From Mustelus asterias (lineage: Eukaryota), in contig NC_135808.1 of assembly GCF_964213995.1 (NCBI RefSeq), positions 7,564,001-7,628,000 on the forward strand: DNA of 64,000 bases. The letters are read 5' to 3'. Below the pieces are notes generated by a model, which saw only the letters and a program-made list of their open reading frames with translations, was not told the origin of the DNA and ran no database searches. Positions 22,820 to 58,330 of the stretch are shown here, piece after piece (the stretch's first letter is position 1; every line of letters begins with the position of its first letter). The position numbers and the translations under genes were made by a program.

Positions 22820-23557
22820 AGTCACAGTTAGGAGGAGTAAAGGGCAGAAGGGTAAAGTACAAGGGAGGTCTCCAGAGGTGTCTCAAAATAGGAAGGGCTT
22901 GGTGACAGGTGTGAGAGGGGAGGGGAGTGGACAGTTAGAAGAAGGGTCACCTGTGGTTGTCCCACTCCAAAACAGGTACATTGTTTTAGATAGTGTGGAG
23001 GAGTGTGCCTCTCCAGGGGTAAGACACAGTGACCAGGTCACTGGCACACAGTCAGGCTCTGTGGCCCGGAAAGGGAAGAGAGGGGTTAGGAGAGCGATAG
23101 TGGTGGGGGATGCGTCAGTTAGAGGGACAGACAGGCGATTCTGTGGGGGCGAACGGGACTCCAGGATGGTAGTCTGCCTACCTGGTGCTGGGGTCACGGA
23201 TGTCTCCGAGCGGATAGGAGGCATTTTAAAAGGGGAAGATAAAGAAACGGATGTCATTATACACATTGGTGGAAATGACGTAGATAGGAAGAGTAGGGGG
23301 GTCCTAAGAGAGCAATTCAGGGAGTTGGGAAATAGGTTAAAAAGTAGGGTCACTAGGATAAGAATAGGGAGTTGGTTCAAATGAATGCCTGGCTAAAGGA
23401 CTGGTCCAGGAGGGAGGGCTTTATTTTCATAGACCAATGGGAGGTTTTCAGGAGAGGATGGCACCTGTACAAGAGGGAGGGGTCACAACTAAGTTGGAAG
23501 GGCACAAATATCCTGGCTGGGAGCTTTGCTAATGCAGTTCGGGGGGGTTTAAACTAA
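22820..23557 (+). pseudogene. CR1 ORF1 remnant (SGNH/GDSL esterase-like), frameshifted
   Basis: AIVVGDASVRG...VCLPGAGVTDV...IHIGGND in one frame. The C-terminal NAWLKDWS...GGLN* is in another frame after a deletion near 23355-23370 (the VVISGLLPVP block seen in the second CR1 is missing). Confidence 0.85.
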
Positions 23558-25570
23558 TATGGCAGGGGGGTGGGGATCAAACTATTAGGTCTATAAGTGT
23601 GGTGGCTGGGGACGAGCTTGGGGCTGGGACAAGGCTGGCAAAGAAGAAGAGCACTCTGGGGGAGGACGACCTCACTGAGCCTGGGGGTCTGGAGTGCTTA
23701 TACTTAAATGCAAGGAGCGTAGCAGGTAAAACAGATGAACTTGGGGCCTTAATGCGCACGAGGAATTTGGATGTGGTTGCGGTGACAGAGACTTGGTTGA
23801 AAGAGGGACAGGACTGGCAGCTGAATATTCCAGGGTACAAGTGTTTTAGGCGAGACAGAGGAGGGGCCAAAAGAGGTGGGGGAGTAGCGGTATTGGTTGG
23901 AGAGCATATTACAGCGGTGCAGAGGGAGGACAATTCGGAGGAGTCGTGTAGCGAGTCACTCTGGGTGGAGCTTAGAAACAGGAAAGGCGCAGTCACTATG
24001 TTGGGGGTGTACTACAGGCCCCCCAACAGCCCAAGGGAAGTGGAAGAATGGATATGTCAGGAGATACTGGATAGGTGCAGGAAATATAGGGTTGTTGTAG
24101 TGGGAGACTTCAATTTCCCTGGTATAGACTGGAAATCGCTGAGGGCAGGGACTCTGGATGGTGAGGCATTTGTAAAATGTGTACAGGAGGGTTCGTTGGA
24201 ACAATATGTGGACAGCCCAACTAGAGAGGGGGCTATACTGGACCTGGTGCTGGGGAATGAGCCCGGTCAGGTCTTCAAAGTTTTGGTTGGGGAACATGTG
24301 GCAAATAGTGACCACAATTCTGTTAGCTTTAGGATAGTGATGGAAAAGGATGAGTGGTGTCCCAAGGGTAAGGTGTTGGATTGGGGGAAGGCTAACTTTA
24401 TTGGGATCAGGCAGAAATTGGCAGCTCTTGATTGGGAGAGGCTGTTTGAGGGTAAATCCACATCTGGTATGTGGCAGTCTTTTAAGGAACGGTTGTTAGG
24501 GCTACAGGACAAGCATGTGCCTGTAAAAAAGAAGGATAGGAAGGGTAGGATTAGAGAACCGTGGATAACCAGGGAAATTGAGGGACTGGTCAAAAGGAAA
24601 AGAGAGGCGTATGTTAGGTCCAAGCAGCTAAAAACGGAGGGAGCTCTGGAGGAGTATAATGAAAGTAGGAAAATACTCAAACGGGGAATTAGAAGAGCAA
24701 AAAGGGGTCACGAAATGTTCTTGGCAGACAGGATTAAGGAGAATCCCAAGGCATTTTATTCATACGTTAGGAACAAAAGGGTTGTTAGGGAAAAAATCGG
24801 ACCTCTCAGGGACAAAAGTGGGGACTTATGCTTGGAGCCCAAAGAGGTAGGGGAGATCCTAAATGAATACTTTGCGTCGGTATTCACTAAGGAGAGGGAT
24901 GTGTTGACTGGGAGTGTCTCGGAGGGGAGTGTTGAACCGTTGGAGAAAATCTCCATTACAAAGGAGGAAGTGTTAGGTTTGTTAGAGAATATAAAGACTG
25001 ACAAATCCCCAGGGCCTGATGGAATCTATCCAAGGCTGCTCAGGGAGACGAGAGGTGAAATCGTTGGGCCTCTGACGCAAATCTTTGTCTCGTCACTGGA
25101 CACAGGTGAGGTCCCAGAGGATTGGAGGATAGCCAATGTGGTCCCGTTATTTAAGAAGGGTAGGAAGGATAACCCGGGTAATTATAGGCCGGTGAGCTTG
25201 ACGTCCGTGGTGGGGAAGTTGTTGGAGAAGATTCTTAAAGATAGGATGTATGCGCATTTAGAAAGGAATAAACTCATTAACGATAGTCAACATGGTTTTG
25301 TGAGAGGGAGGTCATGCCTCACGAACCTGGTGGTGTTTTTTGAAGAAGTGACCAAAATGGTTGACGAAGGAAGGGCCGTGGATGTTGTCTATATGGACTT
25401 TAGTAAAGCATTTGACAAAGTCCCTCATGGTAGGCTAGTGAAAAAGGTTGGATCCCATGGGATAAAGGGGGAGGTGGCTAGATGGGTGGAGAACTGGCTT
25501 GGTCATAGAAGACAGAGGGTGGTAGTGGAAGGGTCTTTTTCCGGCTGGAGGCCTGTGACTAGTGGTGTAC
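23548..25570 (+). pseudogene. CR1 ORF2, 5' part (AP endonuclease + N-terminal RT)
   Basis: CLYLNARS, VTETWL, GDFN, SDH, NYRPVSLTS, QHGF, YMDFSKAFD motifs. No stops until the insertion at SGV|PQG. Confidence 0.92.
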
Positions 25571-26445
25571 ACAGTAAGAAGTTTAACAACACCAGGTTAA
25601 AGTCCAACAGGTTTATTTGGTAGCAAAAGCCACACAAGCTTTCGAGGCTCTGAGCCCCTTCTTCAGGTGAGTAGGAATTCTGTTCACAAACAGAACTTAT
25701 AAGACACAGACTCAATTTACATGAATAATGGTTGGAATGCGAATACTTACAACTAATCCAGTCTTTAAGAAACAAAACAATGGGAGTGGAGAGAGCATCA
25801 AGACAGGCTAAAAAGATGTGTATTGTCTCCAGACAAGACAGCCAGTGAAACTCTGCAGGTCCACGCAACTGTGGGAGTTACAAATAGTGTGACATAAATT
25901 CTGATTCTAGGATCGCATGATAAAGACTCAGGAGGAAAAAAGCAGAAATATTTATGTGAAATAGTGTGACATAAACCCAATATCCCGGTTGAGGCCGTCC
26001 TTGTGTGTGCGGAACCTGGCTATCAGTTTCTGCTCCGCGACTCTGCGCTGTCGTGTGTCGCGAAGGCCGCCTTGGAGAACGCTTACCCGAATATCAGAGG
26101 CCGAATGCCCATGACCGCTGAAGTGCTCCCCAACAGGAAGAGAACAGTCTTGCCTGGTGATTGTCGAGCGGTGTTCATTCATCCGTTGTCGCAGCGTCTG
26201 CATAGTTTCCCCAATGTACCATGCCTCGGGACATCCTTTCTTGCAGCGTATCAGGTAGACAACGTTGGCCGAGTTGCAAGAGTATGTACCGTGTACCTGG
26301 TGGATGGTGTTCTCACGTGAGATGATGGCATCTGTGTCGATGATCCGGCACGTCTTGCAGAGGTTGCTGTGGCAGGGTTGTGTGGTGTCTTGGTCACTGT
26401 TCTCCTGAAGGCTGGGTAGTTTGCTGCGGACAATGGTCTGTTTGA
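25571..26445 (-). mobile_element. Penelope-like element (Neptune type), 5'-truncated, with 7-bp TSD GGTGTAC
   Basis: Open frame KQTIVRSKL...PCHSNLCKTC...CNSANVVYLIRCKKGCPEAWYIGETMQTLRQRMNEH...VGEHF...GLNRD (Cys-rich linker + GIY-YIG endonuclease), stop at 25952. TSD at 25564-25570 and 26446-26452. Confidence 0.92.
25631..25672 (-). ncRNA. Minimal hammerhead ribozyme motif in the Penelope pLTR
   Basis: Minus strand cacCUGAAGA-aggggcucagagccuc-GAAA-gcuu-gug: core boxes CUGANGA/GAAA, stem II, palindromic AGCU in place of stem III, CAC/GUG stem I. Followed by AATAAA. Confidence 0.65.
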
Positions 26446-26452
26446 GGTGTAC

Positions 26453-27363
26453 CGCAGGGCTCTGTATTGGGACCTCTGCTGTTTGTGATTTATATAAATG
26501 ATCTGGAAGAAGGAGTAACTGGGGTGATCAGTAAGTTTGCGGACGACACAAAACTGGCAGGACTTGCAGATAGTGAGGAACATTGTCAGAGGCTACAGAA
26601 GGATATAGATAGGCTGGAAATTTGGGCAAGGAAATGGCAGATGGAGTTCAATCCTGATAAATGCGAAGTGATGCATTTTGGTGGGAATAATGTAGGGAGG
26701 AGCTACACGATAAATGGAAGAACCATAAAGGGTGTAGAGACGCAGAGGGACCTGGGTGTGCAAGTCCACAGATCTTTGAAGGTGACGTCACAGGTGGAGA
26801 AGGTGGTGAAGAAGGCATATGGCATGCTTGCCTTTATAGGACGGGGCATAGAGTATAAAAGTTGGGGTCTGATGTTGCAGATGTATAGAACGTTGGTTCG
26901 GCCGCATTTGGAATACTGCGTCCAGTTCTGGTCGCCACACTACCAGAAGGACGTGGAGGCTTTGGAGAGAGTACAGAGGAGGTTTACCAGGATGTTGCCT
27001 GGTATGGAGGGGCTTGGTTATGAGGAGAGATTGGGGGAACTGGGGTTGTTCTCCTTGGAAAGACGGAGGATGAGGGGAGACTTAATAGAGGTGTATAAAA
27101 TTATGAAAGGCATAGATAGGGTGAACGGTGGGAAGCTTTTCCCCGGGTCGGTGGTGACGTTCACGAGGGGTCATAGGTTCAAGGTGAAGGGGGGGAGGTT
27201 TAACACAGATATCAGAAGGACATATTTCACACAGAGGGTCGTGGGGGCCTGGAATGTGTTGCCGGGCAAGGTGGTGGAGGCGGACACACTGGGAACGTTT
27301 AAGACTTATCTAGACAGCTATATGAACGGAGTGGGAATGGAGGGATACAAAAGAGTGGTCTAG
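26453..27363 (+). pseudogene. CR1 ORF2, 3' part (RT, FADD motif, C-terminal domain)
   Basis: Resumes [11 protein letters not shown]...KFADDTK...YRTLVRPHLEYC...RGH. Joins the 5' part in frame once the insert and one TSD copy are removed (978 codons counted from 23548). Confidence 0.92.
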
Positions 27364-28012
27364 TTTGGACCAGAGAGCGGCGCGGGCTAATTGTTCCTGG
27401 TTTCTTGTTTCAAGGCTTCATTCTATGATCATCTTGCTGGTGCCAGTACAGAGTGAGACTGCGGATAGTTGGGAACCTGTCTCGGGGGCAGGGAATTCAT
27501 ATGGTGTTCGTGGAAGTGGAAATGACTAGGGTTGGGAAGCATTTTCCGATCGGGGCCATTGTGATCTCCTGGACTCGTTTCGATCGCCTCAGGGAGTCGG
27601 AGAGGAATTTCCCAGATTTTTTTTCCCCATATTGGCCCTGGGGTTTTTCACTCTGGGTTTTCGCCTCTCCCTGGAGATCACATGGTCTGGAATGGGGGGG
27701 TGGGGGTATGTTAATAGGTTGTAATGAACAAAGCATCGTAGCTGTGAGGGACAGCTCGGTGGATAGGATATTGGTATGTAGATAGGCTGGAAAATTGGGC
27801 GGGGATCCTGGATTCAGGATTCAATCCTGGACCGGGGAGCGGCGCGGGCTTGGAGGGCCGAAGGGCCTGTTCCTGTGCTGTATTGTTCTTTGTTCTTTGT
27901 CTTTCAAGCTGGTGCCGTTTTTACTGAGTTGAAATTCAGTTCATCTGAAGCTCTACGTCGATGTATCTCCAGGTTGAAGTTTATGTATTTATTTATATTA
28001 TATTGTACTGTT

Positions 28013-31544: not shown

Positions 31545-32585
31545 AGGAGAGGGCTGGCGGGGGAGGGAGAGTGGGGAAGAGAGATAACGGAGAGGGGATG
31601 GGTGAATCAGAGAAGAGGAGGGGAGAGGTGAGGAGGGGGGTCATGAGGGGAGAGGGGAATGAGGCGAGAGAAATGGGACGGAGAGTGTTGGGGGGGAGAC
31701 GGGAGAGGAGTTGGGAGGGGAGGGAGAGTGTGGGGCCAAAGGTGGGAGGGCGGGAATAGAGGAGGAGGGGAGGGAGTGAGTGGAGGAAGAGGGGAGAGGA
31801 TTAAAAGGGGAGAGACAGTAGGGGGAAGGGAAGGGGTGATGGAGAGGGGATGGGATGAGAAGGGCGGAAGGGGGAGGGGGAAGGGGATGTGGAGGGGTGG
31901 CAGGGATGGGGTGATGGATAAGGCGAGGGAGGGGAAGGGGAGGAGGAAGGGACAGATGGAGAGAGCGGAGGGAGCGGGCAGGAGAGAAATGGAGGAAGGG
32001 GAGAGGCATGGGATGGAGGGGAGAGGGGTGGAGCGAGCGAGGAAAGAGGGGAGGAAGGGGGAAAGTGGGAAGACGTGGAGGGAGGAGGAGAGGGGAGAGA
32101 GAGGGAGAGAGGGGAGAGAGGAAGGGCGGGGAAGGAGAGGGAGGGAGGAGGGGGGGAGGGAGGAGAGGGGGAGGGAGGAGGCGGGAGAGAGGGAGGGAAG
32201 AGGAGAGAGATGGAATGGAGGGGAGAGGGGATGGAGGGGAGACGGGAGGGAGGGTTGGGAGGGAGGGGACACGGTGAGAGGGAGAGGAGAGGGAGGGAAA
32301 GGGGTGGGAGAGAGAGAGGGGAGAGGGAAGGGGGAGGGAGTGAAGAAGGGACGGGAAGGGAGTGGAGGGGCCGATTGGAAGGAGAAAGGATGGGGAGGCG
32401 GGAGGGGAGAGGGAAGAGAGGAAAGGGCGGAGAAGGAGGAGAAAGGGAATGCGTGGAGGGGCAGAACAGGAAGGGAGTCAGGGGAGGGCGGAGGGTGGGG
32501 AAGAGATGGAAGGAGCGGGGGAAGGAAGAGATGATTGGAAGGGCAGTGGGGAGACTGCAGAACGGGGAGAGAGGGAGAGAGAGAA
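31545..32585. repeat. ~1-kb polypurine (G/A) low-complexity tract
   Basis: Almost exclusively G and A on the + strand; the overlapping ORFs are compositional artefacts. Confidence 0.95.
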
Positions 32586-33361
32586 TGACATTTTACCTTG
32601 ATTAGCATGCCTGCAGTGAAATGCACCTCATCCACCTCAGTTAATAAACTACAGACAAACGGTGCAAGAATTGTTCCCGCTTCTTTGTGGGGCAGCACTG
32701 GGGTTGTGCCCAGGGAGATTCCTTCTGCATTCTCCAGAAATTCTAAACGTATTCATGAAGAAAGAACAAGAATAAGGAATGAAAATGTACTCAAACTGAT
32801 TGACACAGTCACCTGGAGTGAAACAAATTAAATGAATAATCTCTGTAGACCCACCTTTGATACTTCAAGCTCCCAATCCTACCATACAAACAAACGCACA
32901 GTGACCTCAATCCCGATAACAATGATTTAATACATGATAATTTGGAGATAGAGTATAGGGTGGGTGGGGGGAGAGACTAATTGGAGAGTTCTCATTCAGA
33001 TTACTTTTCTGTTGTAAGGTCTGTGTTACAGAGGCGAAGCCGCTTTGTACACGGGAGGGGGTGCATCTGGCTTTGAATTGAACAATACATCAGTCACACT
33101 TTCTGTTGCGAAATTTTATTTGCGAAATATTCACAACTCCCGTGACCTTACAGTGCAAACAAGCAGGCGAAGGTGATATTTTCCGCCACCCCCGTTGTTG
33201 CTGTGTGTTTTTTTTTTTGCAGAGTGCAGTTCAGAAGAAAATAGTTCTTTTCTCTTTCAGCTGGTTCGAGAATTGCAAAGCGCTCAGCCCACTGCTCCCC
33301 GTTCTGGAAAGGCAAAATAGCGCATTCAGCGCTCACTGCGGCACTGAGCCTCCAGAGGCAA

Positions 33362-34021: not shown

Positions 34022-36934
34022 CTATCTATAGCCCTCAATCCCATTAAATCCCATGTACTCATCCAGAAGTCTCTTAAAAGACCCCAACGAGTTTGCCTCC
34101 ACCACCACCGACGTCAGCCGATTCCACTCACTCACCACCCTCTGAGTGAAAAACTTACCCCTGACATCTCCTCTGTACCTACCCCCCAGCACCTTAAACC
34201 TGTGTCCTCTCGTAGCAACCATTTCAGCCCTTGGAAATAGCCTCTGAGAGTCTACCCTATCCAGACCTCTCAACATCTTGTAAACCTCTATCAGGTCACC
34301 TCTCATCCTTCGTCTCTCCAGGGAGAAGAGACCAAGCTCCCTCAACCTATCCTCATAAGGCATGCCCCCCAATCCAGGCAACATCCTTGTAAATCTCCTC
34401 TGCACCCTTTCAATGGCTTCAACATCTTTCCTGTAATGAGGTGACCAGAACTGCGCGCAGTACTCCAAGTGGGGTCTAACCAGGGTCCTATAAAGCTGCA
34501 GCATTATCTCCCGACTCCTAAACTCAATCCCTCGATTAATGAAGGCCAGTACGCCGTACGCCTTCTTGACCGCATCCTCCACCTGCGAGGCCGATTTAAG
34601 AGTCCTATGGACCCGGACCCCAAGGTCCTTCTGATCCTCTACACTGCTAAGAATGGTACCCTTCATATTATATTGCTGCTTCATCCCATTGGATCTGCCA
34701 AAATGGATCACTACACACTTATCCGGGTTGAAGTCCATCTGCCACTTCTCCGCCCAGTCTTGCATTCTATCTATGTCTCGCTGCAACTTCTGACATCCCT
34801 CCAAACTATCCACAACACCACCTACCTTGGTGTCGTCAGCAAACTTACCAACCCATCCCTCCACTTCCTCATCCAGGTCATTTATGAAAATGACAAACAG
34901 CAAGGGTCCCAGAACAGATCCCTGGGGCACTCCACTGGTCACTGACCGCCATGCAGAGAAAGACCCCTCCACAGCCACTCTCTGCCTTCTGCAGGCAAGC
35001 CAGTTCTGGATCCACAAGGCAACAGCCCCTTGGATCCCATGCCCTCTCACTTTCTCAAGAAGTCTTGCATGGGGGACCTTATCGAACGCCTTGCTGAAGT
35101 CCATATAGACCACATCCACCGCTCTTCCTTCGTCAATGTGTTTGGTCACATTTTCAAAGAACTCAACCAGGCTCGTAAGGCACGACCTGCCCTTGACAAA
35201 GCCGTGCTGACTACTTTTGATCATACTAAACTTCTCTAGATGATCATAAATCCTGTCTCTCAGGATCCTCTCCATCAACTTACCAACCACTGAGGTTAGA
35301 CTCACCGGTCGGTAATTTCCCGGGCTGTCCCTGTTCCCTTTCTTGAGTATAGGGACCACATCTGCAATCCTCCAATCCTCCGGAACCTCTCCCGTCTCCA
35401 TCGACGATGCAAAGATCATCGCCAAAGGCTCCGCAATCTCCTCCCTCGCCTCCCACAGTAACCTGGGGTACATCCCATCCGGTCCCGGCGACTTACCAAC
35501 CTTGATGCCATTCAATAGTTCCAACACATCCTCTTTCTTTATGTCCACATGCTCGATCCTTTCTGTCCACCGCAAACCAGCAGTACAACCACCCAGATCC
35601 CTTTCCACCGTGAATACCGAGGTATAGTATTCATTAAGCAGCTCCGCCATTTCTAACGGTTCCGCACAAACTTTTCCCCCTTCACCTTTTAAGGGTCCTA
35701 TGCCTTCACATCTCATCCTTTTACTCTTGACATATTTGTAGAAAGCCTTGGGGTTCTCCTTAATCTTACCCGCCAAGGCCTTCTCATGACCCCTTCTCGC
35801 TCTCCTAATTTCCTTCTTAAGCTCCTTCCTACATCCCGTATACTCCTCTAAATCCTTAACACCTCCTAGCTCTCTGAACCTTCTGTACGCCTCTCTTTTC
35901 TTATTCACCAGGTTCATCACAACCTTCGTGCACCACGGTTCCCGTACCCTACCAACACCCCCCTGTCTCATCGGAACGTTGTCATGCAGAGCTCCAGACA
36001 AACATTCCTTGAAAATCCTCCACTTTCCTTCGGTACTTTTCCCCAAGAATGCCTCCTTCCAATTTACCCGTCTAATTTCCTCCCTGATGACACTGTATTT
36101 CCCTTTACTCCAGAGAAACACTTTCCTAGCCTGCCTGATCCTATCTCTTTCCAATGCTATCGTGAAGGAGATAGAATTATGATCGCTATCCCCAAGATGC
36201 TCACCCACCGAGAGATCCTCCACCTGTCCAGGTTCATTAGCCAGCACCAGATCAAGTACAGCCTCTCCTCTAGTAGGCTTATCCACATACTGTGTCAGGA
36301 AACTCTCCTGGACACACCTAACAAACTCCTCTCCATCCAAACCCCTAGCCCTAGGGATATTCCAATCTATGTTTGGGAAATTAAAATCTCCCATCACGAC
36401 AACTCTGTTATTCCTACATCTCTCCAGGATCTGTTTCCCCATCTGCTCCTCAACATCTCTGTTACTATTGGGCGGCCTATAGAAAACACCCAGCAACGTT
36501 ACCGACCCCTTCCTGTTCCTAACCTCCACCCACAGAGACTCCGTCGTCAATCCCTCCACGGCGTCCACCTTCTCTACAGCCGTGACACTATCCCTGATCA
36601 ACAGTGCCACTCCCCCCCCTCTCTTGCCTCCCTCCCTGTCCTTCCTGAAACATCTAAAACCCGGCACCTGAAGCACCCAGTCCTGTCCCTGAGACATCCA
36701 AGTCTCCGTAATGGCCACCACATCACAATTCGAAGCAGCAATCCACGCTCTAAGCTCATCCACTTTATTCACTACACTCCTGGCATTAAAATAGACACAT
36801 CTCAGACCTTCAGCCTGAGCACTTCCCTTCTCCATCACTCGTCTAACCTCCCTCTTACCCTGTTTACATTCCTTATCTATTTGCGAGCTAACCTCCTCAC
36901 TCTCAGTCCCCTCATTTCGATTCCCTCCCCCCAA
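34022..36934 (-). CDS. CR1 ORF2p (AP endonuclease + reverse transcriptase), intact
   Basis: 970-aa uninterrupted ORF (frame open back to the slippery site at 36949) with [56 protein letters not shown]. Confidence 0.93.
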   Translation of the reverse strand: MGGGNRNEGTESEEVSSQIDKECKQGKREVRRVMEKGSAQAEGLRCVYFNARSVVNKVDELRAWIAASNCDVVAITETWMSQGQDWVLQVPGFRCFRKDREGGKRGGGVALLIRDSVTAVEKVDAVEGLTTESLWVEVRNRKGSVTLLGVFYRPPNSNRDVEEQMGKQILERCRNNRVVVMGDFNFPNIDWNIPRARGLDGEEFVRCVQESFLTQYVDKPTRGEAVLDLVLANEPGQVEDLSVGEHLGDSDHNSISFTIALERDRIRQARKVFLWSKGKYSVIREEIRRVNWKEAFLGKSTEGKWRIFKECLSGALHDNVPMRQGGVGRVREPWCTKVVMNLVNKKREAYRRFRELGGVKDLEEYTGCRKELKKEIRRARRGHEKALAGKIKENPKAFYKYVKSKRMRCEGIGPLKGEGGKVCAEPLEMAELLNEYYTSVFTVERDLGGCTAGLRWTERIEHVDIKKEDVLELLNGIKVGKSPGPDGMYPRLLWEAREEIAEPLAMIFASSMETGEVPEDWRIADVVPILKKGNRDSPGNYRPVSLTSVVGKLMERILRDRIYDHLEKFSMIKSSQHGFVKGRSCLTSLVEFFENVTKHIDEGRAVDVVYMDFSKAFDKVPHARLLEKVRGHGIQGAVALWIQNWLACRRQRVAVEGSFSAWRSVTSGVPQGSVLGPLLFVIFINDLDEEVEGWVGKFADDTKVGGVVDSLEGCQKLQRDIDRMQDWAEKWQMDFNPDKCVVIHFGRSNGMKQQYNMKGTILSSVEDQKDLGVRVHRTLKSASQVEDAVKKAYGVLAFINRGIEFRSREIMLQLYRTLVRPHLEYCAQFWSPHYRKDVEAIERVQRRFTRMLPGLGGMPYEDRLRELGLFSLERRRMRGDLIEVYKMLRGLDRVDSQRLFPRAEMVATRGHRFKVLGGRYRGDVRGKFFTQRVVSEWNRLTSVVVEANSLGSFKRLLDEYMGFNGIEGYR

Positions 36935-36939
36935 CCTTT

Positions 36940-37846
36940 CTAGTTTAAAGTCTCTCCAGTAGCCTTAGCCAACCTTCCCGCCAGGATAGTGGTCCCCTTG
37001 GGATTCAAGTGCCACCCGTCTTTTTTAAACAGGTCACACCTGCCCCAAAAGAGGTCCCAATGATCCAAGTACCCAAATCCTTGTCCCTTGCTCCAGTCCC
37101 TCAGCCACGCATTCATTCTCCACCGATTCCTGTTCTCACTCTCCCGCGGCACAGGCAGCAATCCCGAGATTACTACCTTTGCATTCCTCTTTCTCAGCTG
37201 TCTACCTAACTCCCTATATTCTCTTTTCATGACCCCTTCCCTCTTCCTACCTATGTCAGCAGTACCTATATGCATCACGACCTTCGGCTCCTCTCCCTCC
37301 CCCTTCAGGATTTCTGGGACTCGACCAGAGACATCCCGGACCCCTGCACCAGGGAGGCAAACCACCATCCGAGAGTCCCGTCTTTGTCCGCAAAAACGCC
37401 TATCTGACCCCCTCACCGTAGAGTCCCCAATTAGCACTACCCTCCTTTCCTTACCCTTTTGCACTACTGGGCCAGGCTCAGCTCCAGAGACACTGCCACC
37501 GCTGCTTCCCCCAGGTGGGCTGTCCACCCCAGTTGTACTCAGACAGGAGTACTTATTATTAAGGGGCACATCCACCGGGGTGCTCACCATCAACTGAGTT
37601 TTCTCCTTCCTCATTGTTACCCAGTTACCCTCCTCCCGGTGTGACCACCTGCCGATAGCTCCTGTCAATGACCTCCTCACTATCCCTAACCCGGCGAAGG
37701 TCCTCGAGCTGCAATTCCAGTTCCCTAACATGGTCCCTTAGGAACCGCAGCTCAACACACCCAGCACAGATATGGTCCTCCGGGAGGCTAGGAGCCTCCA
37801 GGACCTCCCACATCCTACATTGGGGACAACATACTGGCCTCACACT
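36940..37846 (-). pseudogene. CR1 ORF1 (CCxxC zinc-knuckle/coiled coil + SGNH esterase) with one frameshift
   Basis: MSVRPVCCPQCRMWE...CAGCVELRFLRDHVRELELQLEDL in one frame; LIGDSTVRG...CLPGA...HIGTAD...DGWHLN...TLN* in another; break near 37625-37645. Confidence 0.85.
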
Positions 37847-39039: not shown

Positions 39040-39830
39040 TTTTGATTAGATTTCTGATTTTGATTTGATTTATTATAGTCACATGTATTGGGATACAGTG
39101 AAAAGTATTGTTTCTTGCACGCTATACAGACAGAGCATACCATTCATAGAAAAGGAAAGCAGAGGGTGCAGAATGTAATGTTACAGTCGTAGCTCGGATG
39201 TAGAGAAAACCAACTAATATGAGATAGGTCCATTCAAAAGTCTAATGGCAGCAGGGAAGAAGTTGTTCTTGAGTCAGTTGGTACGTGACTTCAGACTTGT
39301 GTATCTTTTTTCCAATGGAAGAAGTTGGAAGAGAGTAGGTCCGGGGTGAGTGGGGTCGTTGATTATGCTGGCTGCTTTTCCGAGGCAGCGGGAAGTGTAG
39401 ACAGAGTCATTGGATGGGAGGCTAGTTTGTGTGATGGACTGGGCTTCGTTCATGACCCTTTGTAGCTTCTTGAGATCTTGCACAGAGCAGGAGCCATACC
39501 AAACTGTGATACAACCAGAAAGAATGTTTTCTATGGTGCATTTGTAAAACATGGTGAGAGTCGTGGTGGAGATTCCAAATTTCCTTAGCCTCCTGAGAAA
39601 GTAGAGGCGTTGGTGAGCTTTCTTAACTATAGCGTCAGTATGCGGGGAACAGGACAGGTTGTTGGTGATCTGGACACCTCGAAACTTGAAGCTCTTGGCC
39701 ATTTCCACTTCATCCCCGTTGATGTAAACATGGACATGTCCTCCAGTATGCTTCCTAAGACAATGACTATCTCCTTTGTTTTGCTGACACTGAGGGAGAG
39801 ATGATTGTCATCGCACCAGTTCACTAGATT
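39040..39830 (-). mobile_element. Rex1/Babar-like non-LTR retrotransposon, 3' fragment
   Basis: WCDDNHLSLSVSKTKEIV, GVQITNNLS..KKAHQRLYFLRRLRKFG..YKCTIENILSGCITVWYG; (ATCAA)n tail. Confidence 0.85.
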
Positions 39831-40485: not shown

Positions 40486-41388
40486 AAAGAACAAAGAATA
40501 ATACAGCACAGGAACAGGCCCTTCAGCCCTCCAAGCCCGCGCCGCTCCCTGGTCCAAACTAGACCATTATTTTGTATCCCTCCATTCCCAGTCCGTTCAT
40601 GTAGCTATCTAGATAAGTCTTAAACGTTCCCAGCGTGTCCGTCTCCACCACCTTGCCCGGCAGCGCATTCCAGGCCCCCACCACCCTCTGTGTAAAATAC
40701 GTCCTTCTGATATCCGTGTTAAACCTCCCCCCCCCTCCTCCCCCTCACTTTGAACCTATGATCCCTCCTGAAGGTCACCACCGACCTGGGAAAACCCTTC
40801 CCACCGTTCATCCTATCTATGCCTTTCATAATTTTATACACCTCTGTTAGGTCTCCCCTCATCCTCCGTCTTTCCAGTGAGAACAACCCCAGTTTACCCA
40901 ATCTCTCCTCATAACTAAGCCCTTCCATACCAGGCAACATCCTGGTAAACGTCCTCTGCACTGTCTCTAAAGCCTCCACGTCCTTCTGGTAGTGTGGCGA
41001 CCAGAACTGGGCGCAGTATTCCAAATACGGCCGAGCCAACATTCTATACAACTGCAACATCAGACCCCAACTTTTATACTCTATGCCCTGTCCTATAAAG
41101 GCAAGCATGCCATATGCCTTATTCACTACCTTCTCCACCTGTGACGTCACCTTCAAGGATCCGTGGACTTGCACTCCCAGGTCCCTCTGCATATCTACAC
41201 CCTTTATGGTTCTGCCATTTATCGTATAGCTCCCCCCTACGTTAGTTCTACCAAAATGCATCACTTCGCATTTATCTGGATTGAACTCCATCTGCCATTT
41301 CTTTGCCCAAATCTCCAGCCTATTTATATCCTTCTGTAGCCTCTGACAATGTTCCTCACTATCTGCAAGTCCAGCCATTTTCGTGTCG
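40486..41388 (-). mobile_element. CR1 3' fragment, same family as the 22805-27900 element
   Basis: DTKMAGLADSEEHCQRLQKD...; near-identical 3' end but with a short 3' UTR. Confidence 0.9.
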
Positions 41389-44300
41389 TAAATGCATTGC
41401 CAGTTTCCTTGCAACTCATAAACCATTTACGCATCCTATCATTTTTAAAATATGAAATTTGACCATTTGCTATGCTATTAAACTCGTCCATTGATTCCCA
41501 TGTGGTTTAAATGTCATTCCAACGTCTGAGTCATGTATAAAAAGGTTTCAGTTACTGTAAGGTAGGATCCCCCTTGCCTTATGATTATTGATCATTTTGT
41601 TAGTTTTCTGTAACCCTTGAGTGAGGATCTGTGCACTAAGAAAATTAAATTCCATTATATTCTATATTCGATTGTAACTTGCATGTGATCCATGGATGAT
41701 GCCAAATTAGATTGATGTTCCTTCCTCTCTGACACTTTCAGACAACCTCACTCAATATAATTTCAAAACAACATCATGTATGGACTTAAAATAGTCTCCA
41801 GTTCTCCATTCATCTGTACCCATCTTGGGGGTACTCCTCACCAGAACCACTTGCCACCAGGCCTTTAATTGTTCTCCTCCAAATTATTTACTCATTCACT
41901 TTAAATTGCTCATTTTAACAGTTAACAGGGTGTTTAAGACTATCCCAATTGTTTTAAAATTGGTTTCTCTATGGCATATGTGTCAGTGCCTTGATCATTT
42001 TTGTTTCACTCTTTTGGCGCCATTAATCATTCAATGGCATGTTCTTTGTCAAGTAGCGTATATGCTTGAGACCTGCTCTTCAATGCAATTATTGCAAGTA
42101 CCTTGAATGGTTCCATTTTGAATTGATTTCCCTGTACATTCTTTACTTCATGTAAGTGATCTGCACATTTACACAGTGTTGCAGGCTTTGATGTCAGCTT
42201 TTTAATTGATCACAAACCCTTCAAGTAACCAGACCAAGTCACGGAGTTCTCTTAAACAGCTGTTTTAACCAAGGTAGATATCTTGGACCCTGCAAAGTCA
42301 CTGATCACAGGATGTAACTCGCCAGGACACAGAATTCAGAAATGCACAAGCAATTATAGCTTCACATTCAATTACAAGTAATTAGCCTGTACCAATCATG
42401 GCATAGGAGTTATCTCGATCCACTCAGAGTTACTGATTAAGGTTACATCATTCAGATATTAAAGCAATTACAATTGCCTTACACTTGCTTAATTATAATA
42501 TCCAATTAGCGTGAAGATTTAATCATGTTACAAGTTATCACGGTCCCAACTCGTGCCTGAATCTGTGCATATCAACACCCTTTTCCGGTTCCAGATTTCT
42601 AATTGAATGAATCTTTGTGGGCAAATGGCCTTGGTGCTTATCTGTGAAGACTTTTGCAAGAAGACCTTTTTTTCATAGCGGCCTTTATAATTTTTAAACT
42701 GATGTGATTATTAACCCTTTCACACAGTGTCCTTAATGTCAAGCCACACCTTCTTGAATTTTTTGTGATCTTATCAAACGATCTCAGAATTATTGTTCAT
42801 TTTTCCATATCTTTCCAGATGTCTCATGTAGGGACCAGAATATCAATTTTTTTTCTCTTCATAAAAACATAGACAAGGACATAAATGCCTTCAAGAGAAA
42901 CTTGTCAACCCTTGAAACAACACTGCAGCACACTGAACCTTCTGTGCTTAGACACTTGACTGGTGTTGGTCAGAGTCTTTTCAAATCAAGCTGTGTTTGT
43001 GGAGTTGAGAGATGGTAGCTGACTTAGCCAGCCAGCTGGTGACCTCTGCAGTTGATGTTAAAACAGCAGTTTCAGTTCCCAAAGACATATAGAGATTTCA
43101 AAACGGTCACTCGAGTTATCTGACTTTCTGTGACTTGGTTCTGCTAACTTCTGGCAAACCATACATGATTGGGACAATTGGTTGTTTATACAAGCAGTTG
43201 TAAGGAGAGCCTGCCTTTCTTTTTAATTCATTTGCAGAATGTGGGCGTCGCTGGCAAGGTCAGCATTTATTGCTCATCCCTAGTTGCCCTCGAGAAGATG
43301 CTGGTGAGCTGCCTTCTTCAACCACTGCAGTCCATGTGGCGTGGGCACACTTAGGGTGCTGTTGGGGAAGAAGTCCCAGGATTTTGACCCAGCGACAGTG
43401 AAGGAATAGCGGTCTGCTTTGTCCTGGATGGTGTCGAGCTTCATGAACATTGTTGGAGCTGCACTCATCCAGGCAAGTGGAGACTTAGACAACCTAAGAT
43501 TCTTTATTTTATTCATTCGTGGCACATGGGTATCGCTGGCTGGCCAGCATTTATTGCCCATCCCTTGTTGCCCAGGGGCAGTTGATGTGCCTCTGGAGTC
43601 ACATGTAGACCAGCCCAAGTAAGGATGGCAGATTTCCTTCTCTAAATTACATTAGTGAACCAGATGGGTTTTTCCAACAATCGACAATGGTTTCGTGGTC
43701 ATTAGTAGATTCGTAATTCCTGATTTTTGTTTTAGTGAATTCAAATTCCTTCAGCTGTCATAGTGGGATTCGAATCCAGGTCCCAGAACATTAGCTGAGT
43801 TTTCTGGATGAATAGTCTAGCAATAAAACCACTAGGCATCGCCTCTCCCTTCTCTGCTAATTATGCTGTTTCAGCTCTTTAGATGTACATCTTGTCACAT
43901 AGACCCTTCATTACTCATTTCCATTCTTATCACATGGTGACCAGGTCTCTTCTATTTCTTCATCATTTATTTGTCATTTTTACATAGATTCAGGTATTGG
44001 CTCATTGCTTTCCACCTATGTCTGAAGATAACCCAGGGAATCTTCTATTCTAAGCCTCTTTTGCCCCTGCAGTGTTATATGTCTTGGCTGATATCCAAAC
44101 AGTTGCTTGTCTCAGTTCCTCATACTTTGTTCCTCACGAGATTTAATTTCCGATTCCTGATGATCTGCAGTTTCTGTTGCCATTTATATGACCTTTTATT
44201 TGCACCCTCTGCTGACCTATCTTTGTATATTTCTTGCTTAAACTGAAGCACTGCTGCACTTTGCTATAATTCTTTCATTACATTATCTTAATAAAGCTAA

Positions 44301-51199: not shown

Positions 51200-51833
51200 T
51201 TTTGTTTGATTTGATTTATTATTGTCACATATTAGTATACAGTGAAAAGTATTGTTCCTTGCGCACTATGCCAACAAGGCATACCGTTCATAGAGAAGGA
51301 AAGGAGAGAGTGCAGAATGTAGTATTACAGTCATAGTGAGGGTGTAGAGAAAGATCAACTTAGTGCATGGTAAGTCCATTCAAAAGTCTGACAGCAGCAG
51401 GGAAGAAGCTGTTCTTGAGTCGGTTGGTACGTGACCACAAACTTTTGTATCTTTTTCCCGACAGAAGAAGGTGGAAGAGAGAATGTCCGGGGTGCGTGGG
51501 GTCTTTAATTATGCTGGCTGCTTTGCCGAGGCAGCAGGAAGTGTAGACAGAGTCAATGGATAGGAGGCTGGTTTGTGTGATGAATTGGGCTACATTCATG
51601 AGCTTTTGTAGTTCCTTGCGGTCTTGGGCAGAGCAGGAGCCATACCAAGCTGTGATACAACCAGAAAGAATGCTTTCTATGGTGCATCTGTAAAGGTTGG
51701 TGAGAGTCGTAGCTGACATACCAAATTTTCTTAGTCTTCTGAGAAAGTAGAGGCATTGGTGGGCTTTCTTAATTATAGTGTCGGAATGGGGGGACCAGGA
51801 CAGGTTGTTGGTGATCTGGACCTCCAAAAATCT
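51200..51833 (-). mobile_element. Rex1/Babar-like non-LTR retrotransposon, 3' fragment
   Basis: Close sibling of 39040-39830: YRCTIESILSGCITAWYG...RTNRLKNSFFPAAVRLLN. Confidence 0.85.
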
Positions 51834-52844
51834 GAAGCATCATCGGGGGTGGGGGGGGGGGGGGGAGTTGAGCAGCAGCAGGAGGAGAGGGGCAGCAGCG
51901 GGGGGAGGAGGGGGAGAGAGAGAGGCAGCAGCGGAGGCGAGAGGAGCAGCGTAAGCAGAGGCAGGACTACACGGAACCAGGGAGTAAATAATCTCTTTCC
52001 CCCAGAGCGACGTAGACTCAGCTAGACGTTTCACGATTATGCGACCTTTGTAATCCTTCTTGAAGTCCTCCAGGCTTTGTGGAGTGAACCAATTCAGGTT
52101 AAGCTTCCATATCCTCCCACCAACATTTGGACGCACATATTAGAAGGCGGGATTTTCCGACCACGCTCACCCCAAAACCGTAAAATCTCGCCGGAGGTCA
52201 AGCGACCTTTGCATGGTCCACGCCCCCCAGGAATCGTAGCGGGCGGGACAGGAAAATTCCCCCATTGTCTTTTTCCATCAGGCGTCCAGTCATAGTGTCC
52301 AGCAAGCCATCGGCTGTCCAATCCTATCGACAGAGGTGAACGCCACCACCTACCCGGAGCAGCCTGGACATTGTCAATTCATTCTTAAAAAAGGACTCTG
52401 TTGCTCCACTCAGAATCCGCTGCTGCTCTGACACATCCATTCTTGGCCGGTGTTGTCCTAGAGATAACCCATTGTAGCCTGGAGCACTCACTTCCTGAAA
52501 AGGAAATTAACCCAATGACCAGTCTCGAGTTTCAAACGATGCAACCCCACCCTCTGTTGGGCACTGCAAGTACTACACCAATGGAGAGAAAAGTCACCAG
52601 CGATTTATTGGCCTTGATGCAACAACCTACCATGCGGTACCTTGTCAAAGGCCTTGCTAAAGCCCATGTAGATAACATCAACTGCACTGCTCTCATCTAC
52701 CTTCTTGGTTACCCCTTCAAAAAACTCAATCAAATTCGCAAGACATGAGGGCTGAGGGCTACAATGCATTCATGAAAGGATAGAGTTTGTGTTCACAGTG
52801 GGTGTAATTGTTGCAAAGAGAGCCCTTTCCAAACCTCAGACGTG

Positions 52845-57109: not shown

Positions 57110-58330
57110 GATCCAGGGCTGCTTCCACCACCTTCTCTGGCATTGCGTTCCAGACACCCATCACTCTCTGCATGAAAAACGTCCCCCGCACATCTCCCTT
57201 AAACTTTCCCCCTCTCACCTTGAATTTGTGCCCCCTTGTTGCCGTTTTTAGGGAACGGTGGACCTGCACGTCCCGGTCCCTCTGTATGTTAATCTTCCTA
57301 AGGGTTCTGCCATTTACAGTATAATTCACACCTAAATTTGATCCTCCAAAATTCATTACCTCACATTTGTCCAGATTAAACTCCATCTGCCATTTCTGTG
57401 CCAAAGTCTCCAATCTATCTATATCCTGTTGTATCCTCTGTCAATCCTCAGCACGATCAGCAACTCCACCAATCTTTGTGTCATTGCAAACTTACGAATC
57501 AGACCACCCACATTACCCGCCAAATCATTTATATACACTACAAATAACAGAGGTCCCAGCACTGATCCTTGCGGAACACCGCTAACTACAGATCTCTATT
57601 CTGAAAAACATCCTTCCACCACTACTCTCTTCTTCTATAACCAAACCAGTTCTGTATCCATCCAGTCAGCCCACCCGGAACCCCATATGATTTTAGCTTT
57701 TGTACCAATCTGCCATGTGCGACCTTGTCAAATGCCTTATAACATCCATATAAACTACATCCACAGCCCTTCCCTCATGAATCATCTTTGTCACCTCTTC
57801 AAAAAACTCAATCAAGTTAGTGAGACATGACCTTCCTCGTACAAAACCATGCGACCTGTCACTAACTAGTCAATTTTCTTCCAAATGTACATATATCCTG
57901 TCCCTCAGTATCTTCTCTAATAGTTTCCCCACCACTGACGTCAGGCTCACCGGCCTATAATTTGCTGGATTATTCTTTCCTCCTTTCTGAAAGAAGAGAA
58001 CAACATTGGCTATTCTCCAGTCCTCTGGAACCTCGCCTGTGGTCAAGGAGGATGACCATAGGCGAGGATCAAAAAGAGGATCTAAAGATATCTGTTAAGG
58101 TCCCAGCTACTTCTCCCCTTGCCTCCCACAGTAACCTGGGATAGATTCCATCCAGCCCCGGGGACTTGTCTACCTTAATGCAATTTCAGATGCTCGACAC
58201 TTCCTCCTTCGATATATAGAAATTAGAGCGTTCACACGTCAATCCCTCACTGCAACATCCGTCAAGTCCTTCTCCTTGGTGAATACCAATACAGAGTATT
58301 CATTAAGGATTTCACCCACTTCCTCTTGCT
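57110..58330 (-). mobile_element. Degenerate CR1 ORF2 fragment with internal deletion
   Basis: QKWQMEFNLDKCEVM fused directly to TRGHKFKV; upstream RT remnants to ~58330. Confidence 0.8.

Follow-up and report, generated by a model that had tools for sequence, protein, structure and literature searches.

CR1 elements end in a hairpin and a short tandem repeat without poly(A). The closest described relatives of the element analyzed here are canonical vertebrate CR1 elements with an esterase ORF1, which share with it the esterase, an ORF2 that encodes an APE endonuclease and a reverse transcriptase (RT), and a short-repeat 3′ end (PMC13343379, PMC4120745, PMC3905857). PMC4120745 places these elements in CR1 subgroup 7, with an ORF1 of type IVB. 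The mode of ORF2 translation in LINEs has been called unclear (PMC3708506), and the other LINE cases known so far point to reinitiation. SART1, which uses UAAUG coupling, and LINE-1, which initiates ORF2 independently of AUG, resemble CR1 in their bicistronic RNA and low level of ORF2, but both yield a separate ORF2 protein, whereas CR1 lacks a conserved stop–start and possesses a slippery heptamer instead (PMC3708506, PMC5009743).

In the APE-type non-LTR elements TRE5-A and TRE3-A of Dictyostelium, translation of ORF2 requires a −1 frameshift, according to a figure legend in a review (PMC5911963). The −1 route thus has a precedent among non-LTR elements. The two elements share with CR1 the −1 route to ORF2 (proposed here for CR1) but differ in lineage and host, and the legend names neither slip site nor stimulator nor experiment. 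Coronavirus IBV (U_UUA_AAC) and HIV-1 (U_UUU_UUA) use heptamers in the same phase as CR1, likewise between a structural or capsid-like gene and the polymerase (PMC5009743). In contrast to these viral sites, which use a stem-loop or pseudoknot at the usual 5–9 nt downstream (PMC5009743), vertebrate CR1 elements show no conserved stable fold and have a stop codon next to the heptamer. The word "frameshift" does not occur in the main texts of PMC13343379, PMC4120745, and PMC3905857, and "CR1" is absent from the first 300,000 of the 449,034 characters of PMC5009743. No proposal of CR1 frameshifting was found in the literature searched, which included PMC2734521, PMC4255032, PMC7175516, and PMC5006619; original CR1 papers and Repbase entries lie outside it and may mention the overlap. 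The comparison of CR1 junctions reported here argues for programmed −1 ribosomal frameshifting, which would produce an ORF1–ORF2 (esterase–endonuclease–RT) fusion; we put the probability of this reading at roughly 80%.

The window is a 64,000-nucleotide stretch of Mustelus asterias contig NC_135808.1, and the features of its flagged CR1 copy are listed in Table 1. The element is classified as an esterase-type CR1 LINE, rather than as an L2 element, on its architecture and characteristic motifs. ORF1 of family member L003 matches Pfam PF13472 (Lipase_GDSL_2, E = 9.6e-9) and also OSK, whereas ORF2 matches PF03372, PF14529, and PF00078, i.e. an APE endonuclease and a reverse transcriptase; Pfam detected no protease domain in either ORF. 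A single-sequence PDB search gave no matches, but a profile search matched the LINE-1 endonuclease (1vyb, E = 2.4e-7), with motif I aligned to its first strand. The closest named proteins of the flagged element come from sharks, rays, and skates, and named relatives of the esterase-type element also include turtle, snake, and lizard proteins.

As for the flagged copy, it is defunct: it is 5′-truncated near 22821, has lost 40 nt of ORF1 near 23356, and carries an 875-nt GIY-YIG insertion in ORF2. Its junction reads GGT TTA AAC TAA (23546–23557), and the ORF2 frame is open from 23533 to 25623, one base behind ORF1 (FKLIWQGGG...CLYLNARS). A preliminary description of this DNA had placed here a T_TTA_AAC in X_XXY_YYZ phase on the last codons of ORF1, an ORF2 open in the −1 frame, a first in-frame ATG beyond the CLYLNARS motif, an out-of-frame ATG at 23559 that stops at 23586–23588, and a GG-CA-GGGGGG-T-GGGG tract 6 nt past the heptamer. 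All of this is borne out in this copy, where the in-frame ATG is at 23752 and the CLYLNARS motif at 23695. The family norm is TAG rather than TAA: among the best 30 of 2,271 candidates, TAG is read in 28 of the 29 copies besides this one.

The insertion contains a GIY-YIG reading frame at 25952–26527 on the minus strand. At about 535 nt, the 3′ UTR (27364–27899) is unusually long compared with the roughly 75–100 nt of several other families, and it has a repeated stretch near 27377–27390 and 27838–27850. The esterase catalytic motif of the flagged family reads EGSQL, not DGLHL (L003:795–1655; window 23390–23557), and the ORF1 protein (ORF1p) of this young, high-copy family may therefore be catalytically dead.

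Table 1. Features of the flagged CR1 copy and of a second CR1 cassette, in window positions
Feature	Position	Strand	Remark
ORF1 remnant, SGNH/GDSL esterase type	22821..23557	+	ends ...VRGGLN*; from alignment to family member L165
Overlapping slippery-pattern heptamer G_GGT_TTA	23545..23551	+	arises only after codons xxG GGT; unconserved
Slippery heptamer T_TTA_AAC	23548..23554	+	X_XXY_YYZ phase; last two ORF1 codons
5′ portion of ORF2 with linker, endonuclease, and beginning of RT	23548..25570	+	
ORF1 stop TAA	23555..23557	+	abuts the heptamer
Linker from slip site to endonuclease	23555..23694	+	open in −1 frame
Mini-ORF from out-of-frame ATG	23559..23588	+	9 codons; unconserved
Conserved G-tract (G4-5 N2 G3), candidate stimulator	23565..23574	+	begins 10 nt past the heptamer
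APE endonuclease motif I (CLYLNARS)	23695..23718	+	upstream of the first in-frame ATG
First in-frame ORF2 ATG	23752..23754	+	codon 69 counted from the heptamer
GIY-YIG-bearing insertion (Penelope-like, label inferred)	25571..26445	-	interrupts ORF2; 7-bp duplication at flanks
ORF2 3′ part: RT, C terminus	26446..27363	+	
3′ UTR: terminal hairpin and short TTCTTTG tandem repeat	27364..27899	+	no poly(A)
Second CR1 family cassette, TTTAAAC TAG	36923..36949	-	G-tract at +10

Across the genome, the junction was approached in ways that are blind to the heptamer: through ORF1 ends, through motif I loci, and through linkers and junctions anchored on protein. ORF1 ends, recognized by the motif GTNILxG with a stop-like TRR 11 codons later, gave 17,910 matches, and the exact in-phase heptamer is present in 16,922 of them (94.5%). 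Families with nonslippery leucine codons, which the preliminary description had pointed to as a counterargument, were not found; CTN leucine, the only class counted separately, occurs in 14 of the 17,910 ends, spread over families as if decayed. The entire cassette (heptamer, stop, N7, GGRR, N3, GGR) has 24,475 occurrences compared with 35 for the reversed control, and patterns one codon out of register, used only as a control, have 120 and 16 matches. The endonuclease motif I pattern matches at 18,889 loci. Among the first 30 of these, TTTAAAC lies upstream in 24 (22 in ORF2 phase), one locus shows it with a single substitution, and five end before the junction.

With only protein motifs as anchors for ORF1 and ORF2, 70 distinct junctions were obtained, and in 62 of them (two of the 62 being spurious pairings) ORF2 is in the −1 phase, as first described for the single copy, rather than in 0 or +1. 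Of the eight remaining junctions, seven differ by 1–4 nt from the spacing of a −1 family, and in one the G-tract is partly lost. The linkers differ in length and sequence between families, yet the reading frame is kept: despite spacings from 176 to 374 nt, nine of the ten spacing classes that are present in at least two copies are −1. The linker is therefore under reading-frame selection from the end of ORF1 onward.

Constraint at the nucleotide level was assessed with 23 vertebrate lineage representatives, 19 from this genome and four bird-type. Because the set was anchored on the heptamer, it is circular with respect to the heptamer as such. Leucine is preceded by a codon for Gly, Ser, Asp, Ala, Thr, Arg, Cys, or Asn, and the third base of this codon is T in 23 of 23. 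From codon usage, this T together with TTA and AAC would be expected in 1.4% per lineage, odds that cannot be multiplied over lineages that are related and unsaturated at synonymous sites. Indeed, Phe −9 is TTT in 15 of 15 cases, and the lineages are therefore not independent. Upstream, synonymous variation is seen in several neighboring columns of conserved Gly, Leu, Asn, or Asp, and TTA accounts for 17% of the leucine codons in ORF1. The stop codon that adjoins the heptamer in all 23 representatives is TAG in 17, TAA in five, and TGA in one. After seven variable nucleotides, a G follows at +10 past the heptamer in 23 of 23 lineages. This first G of the tract is the third base of CAG, TTG, AAG, or GGG, and GGG is the codon for the glycines of the tract (19 of 21 and 20 of 22, compared with 36% in ORF2). 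In contigs of other families from related samples, homology stops at 23574, which is the end of the G-tract (67 contigs, one run). On this comparison of related lineages, we judge the cassette to be conserved beyond protein coding.

Upstream of motif I, 14 of 24 lineages possess no in-frame AUG. In the remaining ten, such an AUG is present at positions that are not conserved, in three lineages at codon 5 directly past the stop, and neither a conserved AUG nor a stop–start pentamer was found at the junction across the 24. In one abundant family, the first methionine is codon 126, beyond even the ETW glutamate. The out-of-frame ATG seen at 23559 recurs at this offset in five of 23 vertebrate lineages. 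Given the in-frame AUGs, three of them directly after the stop, reinitiation may run alongside frameshifting in those lineages.

More distant relatives were sought in metagenome contigs, which gave at least 33 loci. Certain of these copies we take to be bird-type or invertebrate-like, labels assigned here from characteristic motifs and base composition. Among the matches listed, nine are bird-type copies that combine the heptamer and stop with the −1 phase; two have decayed, 12 break off within the linker, and two are unreadable. The same matches include six AT-rich relatives with esterase-type ORF1 ends that carry a phased TTTAAAC (three), TTTTTTA (two), or AAAAAAG (one); the endonucleases of the AT-rich distant relatives are 27–54% identical to those of the vertebrate families. 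Junctions in relatives, a comparison proposed in the preliminary description, have either kept the heptamer or exchanged it for another slippery class. The adjacent stop, also part of that description, holds for the 23 heptamer-anchored vertebrate representatives but is not universal, as it is absent from two TTTAAAC relatives (L077 and L082), in which ORF1 continues beyond the heptamer. Two other listed matches, the CR1-like elements L083 and L101, lack a phased heptamer, and their ORF1 is not of the esterase type. In L101, ORF2 is in the −1 phase, with neither an AUG ahead of motif I nor a canonical heptamer; AUG-less ORF2s therefore exist without the cassette, and L101 appears to use a different expression route.

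The C termini of ORF1 proteins were examined in 175 homologues, 123 of which end near the last helix. A dipeptide that can be encoded by X_XXY_YYZ is found at the end of 85 of the 123 (background 6.7%) and is missing from 38. The end is xLN in 72 of 123, and a residue without an NNT codon precedes LN in only one of the 72, compared with 15% expected (p = 1e-4). The last residues are ALN or TLN in ORF1s of turtle, snake, and lizard, xGN ends are QGN in nine of ten cases, and KN is preceded by Ser in two of two. The xLN, QGN, and SKN ends fit U_UUA_AAC, G_GGA_AAC, and A_AAA_AAC, the last two as judged from protein only; all three are among the four heptamers described as the most shifty (PMC5009743). 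Ends in FL come from DNA-verified relatives and those in GN or KN from proteins; DNA of QGN-type elements was not found in viral or prokaryotic collections, where the endonuclease pattern found none either. Fused ORF1–ORF2 proteins were not seen among the longer database entries, which weighs little, as gene callers would not join frames. One shark-type CR1 ORF1 (P0007), on a contig of 4 kb, has been entered as an SGNH hydrolase of Pseudomonas aeruginosa and is probably a contamination.

Under the proposed mechanism, the majority of ribosomes would terminate at the stop codon of ORF1 and release ORF1p. A minority, paused by the adjacent stop and the G-tract at +10, would undergo tandem tRNA slippage by −1 on U_UUA_AAC and read through the linker into the endonuclease and the RT. 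The predicted transframe junction is ...GGLN/LIWQGG for the flagged copy and GGLN/LVWQGG for the family, and the slippage would fix the ratio of ORF1p to ORF2p. The comparative support consists of the heptamer, the phase, the open −1 linker, the frequent absence of an AUG, the nucleotide-level conservation, and the turnover among slippery classes.

Ribosomes might instead terminate and restart on ORF2, with the heptamer acting as a termination or restart context. The restart could do without an AUG, as has been proposed for mammalian LINE-1, or it could use one close by, as SART1 does. Such reinitiation is established in other LINEs (PMC3708506, PMC5009743), and it accounts for the open linker and the absent AUG; the three lineages with an in-frame AUG at codon 5, the AUG-less L101, and the stop abutting the heptamer in every vertebrate representative also speak for it. 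However, it predicts neither an X_XXY_YYZ pattern with turnover among slippery classes, nor a T that is invariant under eight amino acids, nor the retention of the heptamer where ORF1 reads past it (L077 and L082), and a conserved AUG or stop–start pentamer is absent. We consider reinitiation an unlikely explanation of the cassette.

The two remaining explanations are far less probable still. If ORF1p required a C-terminal Leu-Asn and the DNA identity were simply inherited, the prevalence of xLN and the low variation of some neighboring codons would be expected, but not the fixed third base of the preceding codon, the use of a leucine codon as infrequent in ORF1 as TTA, the shift of ends to FL, GN, or KN, or the preference for GGG in the glycines of the G-tract; this explanation is largely refuted and scarcely credible. 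Alternatively, ORF2 could be brought in frame at the RNA level, by splicing into a TAG or CAG just downstream or by transcriptional slippage, which we regard as very improbable. Of the 23 lineages, 17 have TAG directly after the heptamer and 12 have CAG ahead of the G-tract, but neither AG is conserved (TAA or TGA in six, TTG or GGG in seven), and for transcriptional slippage the T3 and A3 runs are short compared with bacterial runs of nine (PMC5009743). Contigs of four runs show no indel and no joint that ends at these AGs, a weak argument in that contigs drop rare forms.

For programmed frameshifting, the preliminary description had suggested a G-quadruplex 6 nt downstream as the stimulator. 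The 6-nt spacing applies to the flagged copy, whereas the conserved tract begins at 10 nt. The quadruplex itself is not well supported: a two-tier pattern occurs in 15 of the 23 lineages (98 of 770 background windows), a three-tier pattern in two of 23, and neither in two abundant families. An intramolecular G-quadruplex was rejected as a conserved stimulator, its pattern not being universal over the 23 lineages; quadruplex energies from ViennaRNA looked unreliable and were left out of the assessment. Natural G-quadruplex stimulators of frameshifting were stated to be unknown in 2016 (PMC5009743). A local hairpin or pseudoknot was rejected for vertebrates as well, as no conserved stable fold was found in the vertebrate lineages and z scores lie near 0 (−2.7 to +1.9). 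An Rfam search of the cassette returned no matches, and long-range pairing between the G-tract and the 3′ end was discarded, since cognate partners paired no better than noncognate ones (p = 0.61; 3′ end found in 10 of 12 families). UGGGA is a calicivirus-type reinitiation motif; it was rejected here because its conservation is only partial and it does not stand on the side of the stop where such a motif belongs. Around the G-tract, a weak stem of 5 bp (67% paired versus 56% in shuffles, p = 0.001) is a lead only, as it comes from 20 of the 23 lineages (three decayed copies were dropped), which are related sequences, with the register picked post hoc. In two distant relatives, stems of 6–7 bp are predicted, in L076 at 8 nt (z −1.9) and in L086 at 6 nt (z 0.0) downstream.

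The fixed distance of 10 nt and the nucleotide-level conservation suggest, tentatively, that the G-tract could act at the mRNA entry channel in a mostly unpaired state, perhaps bound by a protein; this is the weakest step of the proposal. The protein-stimulated frameshift sites of arteriviruses and cardioviruses likewise have a longer fixed spacing, 11–14 nt compared with 10 nt in CR1, and the arterivirus signal acts through the bound proteins nsp1beta and PCBP (PMC5009743). The CR1 tract may be analogous, although its motif is G-rich and has no known binding protein. On a wider and rather speculative view, esterase-type CR1 elements, the dominant retrotransposons of most vertebrates, might have made their RT as a Gag-Pol-like fusion lacking a recognizable protease for hundreds of millions of years, and the vertebrate stimulator would be a new one, composed of the adjacent stop and the largely unstructured +10 G-tract and read by a host protein, by ORF1p, or by a two-RNA quadruplex.

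If programmed frameshifting is true, it would give a testable answer on ORF2 translation for the commonest vertebrate LINE group and would explain why many CR1 ORF2s lack a start codon. Annotated CR1 ORF2 proteins would then be mis-started, and a membrane-binding esterase and an RT would be joined in one chain. It would also provide tens of thousands of natural frameshift cassettes with a stimulator that matches no usual fold.

The second CR1 family in the window has an ORF2 that is open over 980 codons and an ORF1 with an 8-nt deletion near 37633. More truncated LINE fragments are found at 40534–41389, 39274–39807, and 51360–51839 on the minus strand and at 57342–57830 on the plus strand, and they include a third CR1 3′ piece that is about 92% identical to the flagged family. 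Positions 31600–32750 form a long low-complexity tract with purine/pyrimidine skew, which yields spurious ORFs.
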